Shown: one piece after another, positions 1 to 6,795 of the stretch | How positions within the stretch are numbered: position 1 is the stretch's first letter | Layout of the letters: the number at the start of each line of letters is the position of its first letter | Assembly (NCBI RefSeq): GCF_053078305.1 | Contig: NZ_CP166876.1 | Source of the DNA: a plasmid | Direction: 5' to 3' (one strand) | Length of the DNA: 6,795 bases | Translations under genes and position numbers: made by a program | Notes under the pieces: generated by a model | The model's input: only the letters and a program-made list of their open reading frames with translations | Databases searched by the model: none | Told to the model about the DNA's origin: nothing

Positions 1-915
1 ATGAGCGCCGCGCTTCAATACTTCGAAGAAAATTTACCTCATCGTCCCTATCACACGGATGATCTCGCTTTCGGCCTTCGCATCTCCGGCAAAGGGCGCG
101 CTCTTCTTGCGCGCTACATCCAGCAGAACCAGCCACATGCGCAGTTCTGGCTGGTTTTTGACATTGACCGCGAGGGGGCTGCGATTGACTGGAGCGACCG
201 GAACGCTCCCGCGCCGAACATCACCGTAAAAAATCCTGTGAACGGTCATGCTCACCTGCTCTACGCGCTCAATATCGCCGTGAGAACCGCGCCGGACAGC
301 TCGGTTAAGGCGCTGAAATACGCCGCTGCGATTGAACGTTCGCTGTGTGAGAAACTTTGTGCTGATGTGAACTACAGCGGACTGATTTGCAAAAACCCGT
401 TCCACCTGGAATGGCAGGTGATGGAGTGGCGAGAGGAAGCCTATACCCTCGATGAACTGGCTGATTATCTCGATTTGAGTGCCTCAGCGCGCCGTAGCAT
501 CGATAAACATTACGGGATGGGGCGAAACTGCCACCTGTTCGAAATGACGCGCAAATGGGCTTACAGGGCGATTCGTCAGGGCTGGCCAGCATTCTCACAG
601 TGGCTTGATGCTGTGATTCAGCGTGTCGAAATGTACAACGCATCGCTTCCCGTTCCGCTTTCTCAGGCTGAATGTCGGGCTATTGGCAAGAGTATTGCGA
701 AATACACGCACAGGAACTTCACGCCGGAAACTTTCGCACAGTATGTGGCTGATACGCACACGCCAGAAATTCAGGCTACACGCGGTCGCAAGGGCGGTTC
801 TAAGTCTAAGCGCGGCACAGTAGCTACATCAGCACGCACGCTGAAACCTTGGGAGAAATTAGGGATCAGTCGCGCCTGGTATTACCAACTGAAAAAACGA
901 GGTCTCGTAGAGTAG
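1..915 (+). CDS. rep: ColE2-type plasmid replication initiator Rep (plasmid-specific primase)
   Basis: 304-aa ORF starting at window position 1. The N-terminus (MSAALQYFEENLPHRPY...QQNQPHAQFWLVFDIDREGAA...NITVKNPVNGHAHLLYAL) matches what I remember of ColE2/ColE3 Rep proteins, and its size is typical of them. A ColE2-like origin lies directly 3' of the stop codon, as in that family. Confidence 0.88.
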   Translation: MSAALQYFEENLPHRPYHTDDLAFGLRISGKGRALLARYIQQNQPHAQFWLVFDIDREGAAIDWSDRNAPAPNITVKNPVNGHAHLLYALNIAVRTAPDSSVKALKYAAAIERSLCEKLCADVNYSGLICKNPFHLEWQVMEWREEAYTLDELADYLDLSASARRSIDKHYGMGRNCHLFEMTRKWAYRAIRQGWPAFSQWLDAVIQRVEMYNASLPVPLSQAECRAIGKSIAKYTHRNFTPETFAQYVADTHTPEIQATRGRKGGSKSKRGTVATSARTLKPWEKLGISRAWYYQLKKRGLVE

Positions 916-4036: not shown

Positions 4037-5707
4037 ATGAGCGGTGGCGATGGACGCGGCCATAACACGGGCGCGCATAGCACAAGTGGTAACATTAATG
4101 GTGGCCCGACCGGGCTTGGTGTAGGTGGTGGTGCTTCTGATGGCTCCGGATGGAGTTCGGAAAATAACCCGTGGGGTGGTGGTTCCGGTAGCGGCATTCA
4201 CTGGGGTGGTGGTTCCGGTCATGGTAATGGCGGGGGGAATGGTAATTCCGGTGGTGGTTCGGGAACAGGCGGTAATCTGTCAGCAGTAGCTGCGCCAGTG
4301 GCATTTGGTTTTCCGGCACTTTCCACTCCAGGAGCTGGCGGTCTGGCGGTCAGTATTTCAGCGGGAGCATTATCGGCAGCTATTGCTGATATTATGGCTG
4401 CCCTGAAAGGACCGTTTAAATTTGGTCTTTGGGGGGTGGCTTTATATGGTGTATTGCCATCACAAATAGCGAAAGATGACCCCAATATGATGTCAAAGAT
4501 TGTGACGTCATTACCCGCAGATGATATTACTGAATCACCTGTCAGTTCATTACCTCTCGATAAGGCAACAGTAAACGTAAATGTTCGTGTTGTTGATGAT
4601 GTAAAAGACGAACGACAGAATATTTCGGTTGTTTCAGGTGTTCCGATGAGTGTTCCGGTGGTTGATGCAAAACCTACCGAACGTCCAGGTGTTTTTACGG
4701 CATCAATTCCAGGTGCACCTGTTCTGAATATTTCAGTTAATAACAGTACGCCAGCAGTACAGACATTAAGCCCAGGTGTTACAAATAATACTGATAAGGA
4801 TGTTCGCCCGGCAGGATTTACTCAGGGGGGTAATACCAGGGATGCAGTTATTCGATTCCCGAAGGACAGCGGTCATAATGCCGTATATGTTTCAGTGAGT
4901 GATGTTCTTAGCCCTGACCAGGTAAAACAACGTCAGGATGAAGAAAATCGCCGTCAGCAGGAATGGGATGCTACGCATCCGGTTGAAGCGGCTGAGCGAA
5001 ATTATGAACGCGCGCGTGCAGAGCTGAATCAGGCAAATGAAGATGTTGCCAGAAATCAGGAGCGACAGGCTAAAGCTGTTCAGGTTTATAATTCGCGTAA
5101 AAGCGAACTTGATGCAGCGAATAAAACTCTTGCTGATGCAATAGCTGAAATAAAACAATTTGAACGATTTGCACATGACCCAATGGCTGGCGGTCACAGA
5201 ATGTGGCAAATGGCCGGGCTTAAAGCTCAGCGGGCGCAGACGGATGTAAATAATAAGCAGGCTGCATTTGATGCTGCTGCAAAAGAGAAGGCAGATGCTG
5301 ATGCTGCATTAAGTACTGCGATGGAAAGCAGGAAGAAGAAAGAGGATAATAAAAGAGATGCTGAAGGCAAACTAAATGATGAGTTAGCAAAAAATAAAGG
5401 AAAGATACCAGGTCTAAAAATAGATCAGAAAATTAGGGGACAAATGCCAGAAAGAGGATGGACAGAGGATGATATCAAAAATACCGTATCTAACGGTGCA
5501 ACTGGTACATCTTTTGATAAGCGTAGTCCGAAGAAAACACCTCCAGACTATTTAGGTCGAAATGATCCAGCAACAGTGTATGGTTCTCCTGGTAAATATG
5601 TTGTTGTCAATGATCGTACTGGTGAGGTTACTCAGATTAGTGATAAGACAGATCCGGGTTGGGTGGACGATTCGAGAATTCAATGGGGAAATAAAAATGA
5701 CCAATAA
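4037..5707 (+). CDS. cea: E-group colicin (BtuB/Tol-dependent); C-terminal cytotoxic domain most consistent with E5-type anticodon tRNase
   Basis: 556-aa ORF with an AGAGGG ribosome-binding site upstream. The glycine-rich N-terminal translocation domain carries the TolB box DGSGW at residues 35-39 (nt 4139-4153), as in colicins E2/E3/E9. The central region is the long coiled-coil receptor-binding domain typical of E colicins. The C-terminal ~105 residues (KIPGLKIDQKIRGQMPERGW...WGNKNDQ) have no HNH motif and no histidine, which argues against the E2/E7/E8/E9 DNases; I do not recognise it as the E3 rRNase either, and it fits my recollection of the histidine-free E5 tRNase domain. It is preceded by the SOS operator and followed by immunity and lysis genes. 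Confidence 0.93.
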   Translation: MSGGDGRGHNTGAHSTSGNINGGPTGLGVGGGASDGSGWSSENNPWGGGSGSGIHWGGGSGHGNGGGNGNSGGGSGTGGNLSAVAAPVAFGFPALSTPGAGGLAVSISAGALSAAIADIMAALKGPFKFGLWGVALYGVLPSQIAKDDPNMMSKIVTSLPADDITESPVSSLPLDKATVNVNVRVVDDVKDERQNISVVSGVPMSVPVVDAKPTERPGVFTASIPGAPVLNISVNNSTPAVQTLSPGVTNNTDKDVRPAGFTQGGNTRDAVIRFPKDSGHNAVYVSVSDVLSPDQVKQRQDEENRRQQEWDATHPVEAAERNYERARAELNQANEDVARNQERQAKAVQVYNSRKSELDAANKTLADAIAEIKQFERFAHDPMAGGHRMWQMAGLKAQRAQTDVNNKQAAFDAAAKEKADADAALSTAMESRKKKEDNKRDAEGKLNDELAKNKGKIPGLKIDQKIRGQMPERGWTEDDIKNTVSNGATGTSFDKRSPKKTPPDYLGRNDPATVYGSPGKYVVVNDRTGEVTQISDKTDPGWVDDSRIQWGNKNDQ

Positions 5708-6026
5708 ATTATTTGAACATACGGTGTTATATGATAGTGGTGATGCCTTTTTTGAATTAAAAGGAAATGCTTCTATGAAGTTATCACCAAAAGCTGCAAT
5801 AGAAGTTTGTAATGAAGCAGCGAAAAAAGGCTTATGGATTTTGGGCATTGATGGTGGGCATTGGCTGAATCCTGGATTCAGGATAGATAGTTCAGCATCA
5901 TGGACATATGATATGCCGGAGGAATACAAATCAAAAATCCCTGAAAATAATAGATTGGCTATTGAAAATATTAAAGATGATATTGAGAATGGATACACTG
6001 CTTTCATTATCACGTTAAAGATGTAA
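5697..6026 (+). CDS. Colicin immunity protein (cognate inhibitor of the C-terminal nuclease domain)
   Basis: 109-aa ORF (MTNKLFEHTVLYDSGDAFFELKGN...) whose ATG at 5697 overlaps the colicin stop codon (5705-5707), the typical translationally coupled position of nuclease-colicin immunity genes. The six-frame ORF begins at 5562, but that extension lies wholly inside the colicin reading frame and is rejected. The gene is AT-rich like the cytotoxic domain. Confidence 0.85.
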   Translation: MTNKLFEHTVLYDSGDAFFELKGNASMKLSPKAAIEVCNEAAKKGLWILGIDGGHWLNPGFRIDSSASWTYDMPEEYKSKIPENNRLAIENIKDDIENGYTAFIITLKM

Positions 6027-6123
6027 ATAGTGTTATAGAATTTTATGTTTCATGGATGATTTCAACCTTTGGATTTCAGGTTTTTATGGATGAATGCCTG
6101 AGTCCATATATACAAGGAACAGT

Positions 6124-6267
6124 ATGAAAAAAATAACATGGATTATTTTATTGCTTCTTGCAGCCATTATTCTTGCTGCATGTCAGGCAAACTATATCCG
6201 CGATGTTCAGGGCGGGACTGTATCCCCGTCATCCTCAGCTGAACTGACCGGATTAGCAACGCAGTAA
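6124..6267 (+). CDS. Colicin lysis / release lipoprotein (bacteriocin release protein)
   Basis: Translation by hand gives the 47-aa protein [47 protein letters not shown], with a lipoprotein signal peptide and lipobox LAAC. It is nearly identical to the E-group colicin lysis proteins as I recall them. It is absent from the ORF track because it is short. A ribosome-binding site 'aaggaa' lies upstream. Confidence 0.9.
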
Positions 6268-6294
6268 CCCGAAATCCTCTTTGACAAGAACAAA

Positions 6295-6327
6295 GCGTGT
6301 CAGGCTGATTCTGACGCGCTTTTTTTT
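6295..6327 (+). terminator. Rho-independent terminator of the colicin operon
   Basis: A 9-bp stem 'gcgtgtcag' (6295-6303) pairs with 'ctgacgcgc' (6311-6319), with one G-U pair and a 7-nt loop, and is followed by a run of 8 T (6320-6327). It lies 28 bp after the lysis gene stop. Confidence 0.8.
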
Positions 6328-6463
6328 GAAGTGTCACAAAAATTCCATGTGGGAGATGGGATCTAAAATCCCCGTGCAGAACTTTCCATCCAGGGGGAGA
6401 AAACTTGTCGTTTTGAGCCGTTCGGTGTTCAGAACGCACGAAACCGATCGTGCATCGCTTTCG

Positions 6464-6477
6464 TGCATAGTTATGCA
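6464..6477. promoter_or_regulatory. ARG-box-like palindrome (candidate ArgR accessory site of the cer-like locus)
   Basis: Palindrome 'tgcatagttatgca' resembles the ARG box half-sites (TGAAT/ATTCA with a symmetric A-to-C change) and is centred about 120 bp upstream of the XerCD core, close to the spacing in ColE1 cer. A direct repeat 'tcgtgcat' (6448-6455 and 6461-6468) flanks it. Confidence 0.35.
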
Positions 6478-6578
6478 ACGCGCTAAAAACGATTCTGACG
6501 CATTTTTTATGTTTACCCTGGTGTTTCCTTGTCTTTTTGTTTTTTTTGCGTCAGAAAGCGATTGAGGGTGTTTTAAGG

Positions 6579-6606
6579 GGTGCGTACAACGGGAGTTATG
6601 GTAAAT
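6579..6606 (+). other. XerC/XerD site-specific recombination core (cer-like multimer resolution site)
   Basis: The sequence 'ggtgcgtacaa cgggag ttatggtaaat' has a XerC arm identical to ColE1 cer (GGTGCGTACAA), a 6-bp central region (cer has 8 bp) and a XerD arm TTATGGTAAAT identical to cer. About 180 bp of upstream accessory sequence (about 6400-6578) includes the ARG-box-like palindrome. Confidence 0.8.
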
Positions 6607-6619
6607 GGATCGGGTTTTG

Positions 6620-6795
6620 GGGAATAATCGACAGGGTTTGCCGTTGGGTGTAGTGTAAGCGACTGAAAAACAAACGCCCCGTAAATCGTGCTCTCACCGC
6701 CAAGATTGATCACGAAATTACAGGGCGCCGGGTTCCGCGTCTCCCGATGGGAAAGCGCGGTTAGTTAAACTGTGTACCGAGAGGAATCGTAACAC
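6620..6795 (+). promoter_or_regulatory. Presumed rep leader / copy-number control region (rep promoter, antisense-RNA target), continuing into rep at position 1 if the molecule is circular
   Basis: A ribosome-binding site 'gagagg' (6778-6783) sits about 12 nt before the window end, positioned for the rep ATG at 1 across the circular junction. An imperfect stem-loop 'ccgcgtctccc gat gggaaagcgcgg' is at about 6757-6780. A candidate sigma70 promoter has -35 'tcgaca' (6628-6633) and -10 'tagtgt' (6651-6656). ColE2-type replicons control Rep translation with an antisense RNA against this leader; the exact RNA ends cannot be set from sequence. Confidence 0.35.

Follow-up and report, generated by a model that had tools for sequence, protein, structure and literature searches.

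A motif shared by the colicin operon terminator and the cer-type Xer site of a ColE2-type plasmid, and a predicted hairpin at the probable position of Rcd

The lys-rep interval and its repeats

The stretch of DNA analysed, called hereafter the window, is 6,795 bp long and corresponds to a complete small colicin plasmid of the ColE2 type, which is circular and encodes a MobQ relaxase. Because of this circularity, the repeats described below fall in the interval between lys and rep (Table 1). The colicin operon is read on the + strand, towards cer, and rep lies directly downstream of the cer site on this ColE2-type (Rep protein) replicon. Across the lys-rep interval, the window shares 99.8% identity with plasmid pO111-110512_4 of E. 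coli O111 (NZ_AP019765.1, also 6,795 bp). The - strand of the rep leader (6607-6795) forms a long hairpin, after which comes UUUGUUUUU, with its end near 6665; this probably corresponds to antisense RNA I, the regulator of rep in ColE2-type plasmids. A likely rep promoter is predicted at TCGACA (6628-6633), 17 bp, TAGTGT (6651-6656), about 20 bp past the XerD arm.

Table 1. Position of the genes and sequence elements in the window
Feature	Position	Strand	Description or basis
ColE2-type rep gene	1-915		
tRNase-type colicin gene	4037-5707		
Colicin release (lysis) lipoprotein gene, last gene of the operon	6124-6267	+	NZ_AP019765.1 5064-5207, annotated 'colicin release lysis protein'
Intrinsic (rho-independent) terminator of the colicin-immunity-lysis operon	6292-6327	+	13-pair stem, 5-nt loop, T8; terminator scan
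cer-type Xer multimer-resolution site, accessory and core	6400-6606	+	similarity to ColE1 cer; 51 other sites aligned
ArgR (ARG) box, CGTGCATAGTTATGCAAC	6462-6479	+	11/16 specified consensus positions
Positional equivalent of Pcer	6463-6489	+	GTGCAT 6463-6468, 15 bp, TAAAAA 6484-6489; columns of ColE1 TTGCAT-15-TAAAAT
Left (5') arm, TTCTGACGCA	6493-6502	+	overlaps copy 2 of the direct repeat (6491-6501); pair table from 64 in-register family variants
T-rich loop or spacer, 44 nt	6503-6546	+	T-tracts 6503-6508, 6512-6514, 6524-6526, 6534-6538, 6540-6547
Right (3') arm, TGCGTCAGAA	6547-6556	+	same pair table, 64 variants
Xer core	6579-6606	+	XerC arm GGTGCGTACAA 6579-6589, central CGGGAG 6590-6595, XerD arm TTATGGTAAAT 6596-6606; pattern match

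A preliminary description of this DNA had pointed out an 11-nt motif, GATTCTGACGC, occurring at 6307-6317 and again at 6491-6501, each time followed by a T-run. Both copies were found as described, and the direct repeat was seen to widen to 16/18 identity (6307-6324 versus 6491-6508). Copy 1 had been assigned to the loop and 3' arm of the lys terminator, and both the terminator scan and the fold agree with this: the stem (6292-6322) with its T8 reached -22.4 kcal/mol (z = -5.3), and none of 200 shuffles was equally stable. The element combines a GC-rich stem, a short loop and a U-run immediately after the stem. It is kept in 26 related loci, and has its own internal compensation, GCGTGTCAG/CTGACGCGC becoming GCGTATCAG/CTGATGCGC. 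A promoter-like sequence, GTGACA-18-CAGAAT (9/12), overlaps this terminator on the - strand (6337-6308); it is the sole consensus promoter match in 6000-6795, and shuffles give as many.

Around copy 2 no left arm of the terminator is present nearby, also as first described, and the T-run that follows it is the first T-tract of cer. The left arm that overlaps this copy is the exact inverted complement of a right arm situated beyond a 44-nt spacer, at the coordinates first given. Neither the direct nor the inverted repeat is statistically exceptional alone. When the 528 nt from lys to rep were submitted to dinucleotide shuffling, 3.7% of the shuffles contained an 11-mer direct repeat without mismatch, and 29% an inverted repeat of 10 nt. 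A further 24 pairs of 11-mer direct repeats are present in the whole window, and the 9-mer TTCTGACGC has three occurrences in it, against 1.8 expected with at most one mismatch, a number reached by 53 of 200 shuffles. The meaning of the inverted repeat comes from the comparison with other plasmids, rather than from its improbability.

Intrinsic terminators consist of a GC-rich stem, a loop of 3-8 nt and a U-run right after the stem. The preliminary description had suggested that the second copy, with its distant partner, could be a second, long-range terminator. Such an element could back up the lys terminator on the + strand and protect cer and rep from read-through of the colicin operon, which does read towards cer, or it could act on the - strand as a stop for transcripts coming from the rep side. 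For the - strand, the fold of 6480-6570 was rather stable (z = -2.7, with 3/200 shuffles as stable), and the stem is followed after 3 nt by U5, UCGUUUUU. However, the 44-nt loop of 6493-6556 is far beyond the geometry of intrinsic terminators, the + strand 3' flank of the right arm, AAGCGAUUGAGGG, has no U-run, and the scan called no terminator there on either strand. On the - strand, the U-run is the mere complement of the Pcer -10 position, and the antisense RNA of the rep leader owns a strong hairpin and U-run near 6665. The bias in mismatches reported below moreover favours the + over the - strand. A terminator or insulator role is thus highly improbable, and a second terminator is not supported.

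Another proposal was a remnant of a duplicated terminator, in which the left arm and T-run of cer derive from the 3' half of the lys terminator by duplication or recombination, or the reverse. The 16/18 identity, T-run included, and the rarity of an exact 11-mer repeat in interval shuffles speak for it, and some relatives match even better, with GATTCTGACGCG in both elements. Several results go against this derivation. Among the 142 same-type cer sites having enough upstream sequence, only 26 are preceded by a lys-type terminator; in the remaining 116, the cer arm is present with no such terminator before it. Terminator variants (GATCCTGACGCGC, GATTCTGATGCGC) co-occur with any cer-arm variant, so that the two do not track each other. 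Related arms, GATCCTGACGCA, also belong to cer sites situated on ColE1-type replicons and on others that are unrelated, and there are the 24 further 11-mer pairs of the window. A colinear duplication was looked for by way of a flanking repeat, D2 (GCAACGCAGTAA/GCAACGCGCTAA), and rejected: its spacing is 219, versus 184 for the 11-nt repeat (D1), and its first copy coincides with the 3' end of the lys coding region, which is under constraint. In ColE1, the kil terminator was compared with the cer arms of the same plasmid, as a resemblance would have hinted at a functional link of the terminator with Rcd, and none was found.

Common descent of the two copies is consequently very doubtful. With few terminators upstream of the arm, variants that do not track, arms present on other replicons and a T-run that belongs to the cer T-tracts, the shared 11-mer is, from sequence comparison, best read as incidental, reflecting neither a duplication remnant nor a functional pairing. 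Of the three options offered by the preliminary description, only the last one is supported, namely that the repeat is part of the cer accessory architecture, possibly with a small transcript: the arms are flanked by the ArgR box on one side and by the XerC/XerD core on the other, and they overlap the columns of the Rcd stem.

The cer-type site and its subfamily

On sequence grounds, 6400-6606 is a cer-type Xer dimer-resolution site. Column identity to ColE1 cer is 70% (6380-6720 aligned), the alignment with 51 other cer-like sites is nearly gapless, with about 180 bp of homologous accessory sequence, and 6400-6640 is matched by 1,553 plasmid records. An ArgR box is located about 100 bp upstream of the core, and the best ARG-box match of ColE1 cer (12/16) occupies the same alignment columns. 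A cer core is made of an 11-bp XerC arm, a central region of 6-8 bp and an 11-bp XerD arm; in the window both arms have exactly the ColE1 cer sequence. Between them lie 6 bp, versus 8 bp in ColE1 cer and 7 bp in many other sampled sites, and the length of this central region is known to affect the outcome of the Xer reaction. At position 6582, in the XerC arm, the window (GGTGCGTACAA) differs from the otherwise near-identical NZ_AP019765.1 (GGTACGTACAA). The GGTGCG, GGTACG and GGGGCG alleles of this arm are all common in the subfamily of the window.

The DNA of cer is bent by A-T tracts phased at about 10.5 bp (PMC2831885). The window has five T-tracts, whose starts are about 10 bp apart, and conserved T columns are spaced by 23 and 35.5 columns; the periodicity signal is modest, with a weak Fourier peak at period 10. 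Resolution sites of the XerCD type are reported to be frequent in ColE2-like plasmids, and the binding site of PepA to be less clearly defined (PMC2831885). At the DNA level, the T-tract spacer would be the bent part of the accessory sequence, placed after the ArgR box and before the XerC/XerD core. Its role, by analogy with ColE1 cer, would be to wrap around ArgR and PepA, letting XerCD resolve dimers to monomers.

Two other elements were noticed in the site. A second inverted repeat, GCACGAAACCGAT [CGTGC] ATCGCTTTCGTGC (6436-6466, 12/13 pairs), lies against the ArgR box and reaches into its left end. At the same place, L041 has a differently spelled repeat of 11 pairs, GTGCGAAACTGA [TCGTCAT] TCAGTTTCGCGC, which looks compensated, and ColE1 has none. 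On the + strand at 6562-6590, a promoter-like TTGAGG-17-TACAAC (8/12) has its -10 within the XerC arm and is oriented towards rep. It is a candidate only, and binding of XerC could occlude it. Its ColE1 counterpart is TGAACG-15-TACAAT.

The subfamily of the window comprises 154 sites, of which 76 are unique and 64 are in register. Its members are carried mostly by ColE2/Col156-type MOBQ plasmids or inserted in large IncF plasmids. Stem cells of the subfamily pair in 96.9% of cases when read on the + strand and 92.0% on the - strand, versus 30-56% in slid controls, and G-C compensated variants (TTCTGGCGCG/TGCGCCAGAA) are present. Within the window family, the 10-bp stem was not significant against shuffles (p about 0.1-0.2), the arms were no more conserved than the loop (minor-allele fraction 0.059 vs 0.066), and an association at position 6 failed to reach significance (Fisher p = 0.10). 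In about 30% of its unique variants, the middle of the stem contains an A·C mismatch.

At the equivalent of 6491-6515, many members of the family (L004, L010, L063 and relatives) carry two tandem TTCTG(A/G) motifs, GATTCTGACGCGTTTTTCTGGTTT, which let the right arm GCCAGAAAG pair in a second register, with 9 bp and a 37-nt loop. The class with the A·C mismatch is also the class with this second-register alternative, which suggests that the helix is evolving by slippage.

A long-range helix in diverse cer-like sites

Loci were gathered from PLSDB (16), from genome contigs (58) and from metagenomes (more than 120), and 52 unique and diverse cer-like sites were compared. Their arm sequences are almost wholly different between subfamilies. 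The pair is TTCTGACGCA and TGCGTCAGAA (5' and 3' arm) in the window, GGTGCGATCGCGGCAGT and GCTGCCGTGATCGCACC in the ColE1-like L039, CGCGTTTCTGGTGT and ATGCCAGAAACGCG in L020, GTGTTTCTGGTGGAT and ATCCGTCAGAAACGC in L024, and GGGGCGATTCTGG and TCAGGATCGCTCT in L026. In spite of this turnover a helix recurs at this place: the best + strand helix encloses a T-rich loop of 31-46 nt, and for 23 of the 52 sites it was significant relative to dinucleotide shuffles (p <= 0.015). In the L013-type subfamily, the best uninterrupted stem is just 5-8 pairs long (p 0.2-1.0).

The helix depends on G·U pairs. For all 52 sites, the longest uninterrupted stem has on average 10.9 pairs on the + strand versus 8.9 on the - strand, and the mean minimal free energy is -28.4 versus -21.7 kcal/mol, a difference to which the G+T-rich + strand contributes by composition alone. 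In an unbiased strand test, helices were defined by Watson-Crick pairs only, all other pairs being penalised equally. Interior non-Watson-Crick pairs were G·T in 24 cases, A·C in 10 and other in 5. When shared ancestry was collapsed, by eye rather than by phylogenetic analysis, about 15 independent G·T events remained versus 4 A·C events (binomial p = 0.0096). This bias favours a constraint on the + strand RNA, as an inverted repeat of duplex DNA predicts 50:50.

RNAalifold, applied to the 52-site sequence alignment, returned 0 consensus pairs. The register of the helix differs among subfamilies, so that column-wise covariation does not arise, and for this reason helices were tested sequence by sequence rather than by consensus.

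These results bear on a reading at the DNA level only, in which the bent accessory DNA is what is conserved, the arms are kept as protein contacts or by descent, the RNA hairpin is irrelevant here and the Rcd function has been lost. The weakness of the hairpin in the window family, which fails the shuffle test, has arms no better conserved than its loop and carries the A·C mismatch in about 30% of its variants, is in line with it, as are the missing consensus structure and the -10 of the Pcer equivalent, which lacks its final T. Moreover, the starts of the two arms are 54 bp apart, about five helical turns, which places them on one face of the helix. Against it, complementarity between segments some 40 nt apart recurs in several subfamilies despite nearly complete arm turnover, and a bias of interior mismatches towards G·T is meaningless for duplex DNA. 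With a PepA site that is less clearly defined (PMC2831885), there is also no known sequence-specific contact that would account for the symmetry of the arms. We therefore regard a purely DNA-level explanation as rather unlikely, and retain that of a hairpin at the Rcd position. The presence in several lineages of a helix flanking the cer T-tracts, with complete arm turnover and the G·T bias, lends independent support, of a computational kind, to selection acting on an Rcd-like fold of the RNA.

Two observations concern the sampled loci. Cer-like sites of enterobacterial type are present on short contigs in assemblies that bear the names of Streptococcus, Bacillus, Streptomyces, Pseudomonas, Bacteroidales and other taxa (L019, L025, L030, L031, L038-L042, L050-L052, L064-L066, L070, L073-L076). 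Most likely they represent contamination by small ColE1/ColE2-type plasmids or vectors, not true hosts. Besides, several metagenome contigs contain 2-4 copies of one cer core (L137, with 4, L144, with 3, L088, L077, L100, L103 and others), only about 430 bp apart in L088 and L137. Assembled multimers, cointegrates or tandem cer sites could explain them.

Correspondence with Rcd and with known systems

Rcd is a dimer-induced checkpoint RNA that binds tryptophanase and raises indole. According to its published descriptors, it is encoded within cer, is about 70 nt long and is predicted to form a single stem-loop. Its promoter, Pcer, has a spacer of 15 bp (PMC5935869), and transcription inside cer runs from the ArgR side to the XerCD side (PMC2831885). 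A conserved block of 15 nt was proposed as the site of interaction with the target (Sharpe 1999, as cited in PMC5935869).

We located Rcd in ColE1 cer starting from two promoter candidates with a 15-bp spacer, tied at 8/12. The first, TTGCAT-15-TAAAAT, overlaps the ArgR box, and a 70-nt RNA begun 7 nt beyond it folds into one hairpin (-36.6 kcal/mol, z -5.7). The second, with its -10 (TACAAT) in the XerC arm, was rejected: its 70-nt RNA is unstructured (-11.9 kcal/mol, z -0.13) and leaves the site. In related sites, identity to ColE1 is 0.50-0.60 for the RNA of the XerC-arm candidate, versus 0.52-0.93 for that of the TTGCAT candidate. As only TTGCAT-15-TAAAAT fits the spacer, the length of about 70 nt and the single stem-loop, we infer that ColE1 Rcd lies at about L002 3828-3897.

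With these coordinates, the outer stem of ColE1 Rcd overlaps the columns of the two window arms, with an offset of about five columns; the register of the helix, given as column sum, is about 139 in the window versus about 148 in ColE1. The helix of the window follows the ArgR box and precedes the XerC site, and on the + strand it is read towards the core, as expected for Rcd. This positional correspondence of the window helix to the Rcd stem is well supported by the alignment. The hairpin itself, a 10-bp stem of -14.6 kcal/mol on the + strand, has a z of -3.15 when 70 nt are folded and -1.1 for 85 nt. It retains the single-hairpin topology, of which the closing stem alone is left, the loop being unstructured. 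The best-conserved apical block of ColE1-like sites, GGGTGGTTTGTTGCC (A2 columns about 63-77), is replaced by CCTGGTGTTTCCTTG in the window, where its conservation is poor.

Where Pcer would be expected, the -10 reads TAAAAA or TGAAAA, without the conserved final T. Among the 52 cer-like sites, TTGCAT is present in 4 and TAAAAT in 11. No Rfam family was matched anywhere in the window at E <= 1. This result is uninformative, since a scan of ColE1's own cer returned a chance MIR478 match alone (E = 4.1), indicating that Rfam holds no Rcd model. Inspection by eye of 6480-6580 for a strict FIS core (G-N13-C with an A/T-rich centre) gave nothing convincing.

Read as a + strand RNA towards the core, the two 10-nt arms would form the closing stem of a hairpin, and this stem would overlap the columns of the outer stem of ColE1 Rcd. 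In the ColE2-type lineage the hairpin would be reduced to a stem of 10 bp, an unstructured U-rich loop of 44 nt and an off-consensus equivalent of the promoter. The explanation that we favour, and think probable, is that of two unrelated and ordinary elements that share an 11-nt string, the lys terminator and a cer site with a hairpin at the Rcd position. By analogy with ColE1, an RNA may be made from this plasmid and act like Rcd.

A more speculative variant would be a stripped-down relative of Rcd made by SOS-induced read-through of the colicin operon past the lys terminator, the site having no consensus Pcer. The U-rich loop might be its means of action, for example through Hfq or another protein that binds it, and colicin induction or the dimer state would so be linked to growth arrest of the host or to expression of rep, which lies immediately downstream. 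We hold this to be very improbable. If true, it would be a relative of Rcd with a 10-bp stem and a 44-nt U-rich loop that has no dimer-sensing promoter.

The proper annotation of the interval is that of a colicin operon terminator and a cer-type Xer site with an Rcd-position hairpin. A label of second terminator or of duplication should not be used, and beyond correct annotation the significance is small, the feature being an ordinary member of a well-known system. What is mildly new is that, of the Rcd hairpin, ColE2/Col156-type cer sites keep only a minimal version, whose promoter equivalent departs from the consensus. It may be asked whether small plasmids as common as these have a working Rcd checkpoint.

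Compared with known systems, the element at 6292-6327 is exactly a terminator of an E-group colicin operon, whereas the element at 6493-6556 shares 11 nt with its 3' arm and has no partner arm nearby. Relative to the cer-like sites of other small enterobacterial plasmids, the window has the common set of ArgR box, T-tracts and XerC/XerD core found in all of them, and the helix around the T-tracts found in many, with lineage-specific arms. Its subfamily is distinct by the 6-bp central region and by arms of the form TTCTGACGCR/TGCGYCAGAA. With ColE1 cer, Pcer and Rcd, it shares the order of the parts, namely ArgR box, overlapping promoter position, T-tract bend, XerC arm, central region and XerD arm. 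In both, a long-range helix of the + strand encloses the T-tracts, with loops of 43 nt in ColE1 and 44 nt in the window. The window differs from ColE1 by a hairpin devoid of inner helices, with the 10-bp outer stem alone (-14.6 vs -36.6 kcal/mol), by its promoter hexamers (GTGCAT/TAAAAA vs TTGCAT/TAAAAT) and by its central region (6 bp, CGGGAG, vs 8 bp).
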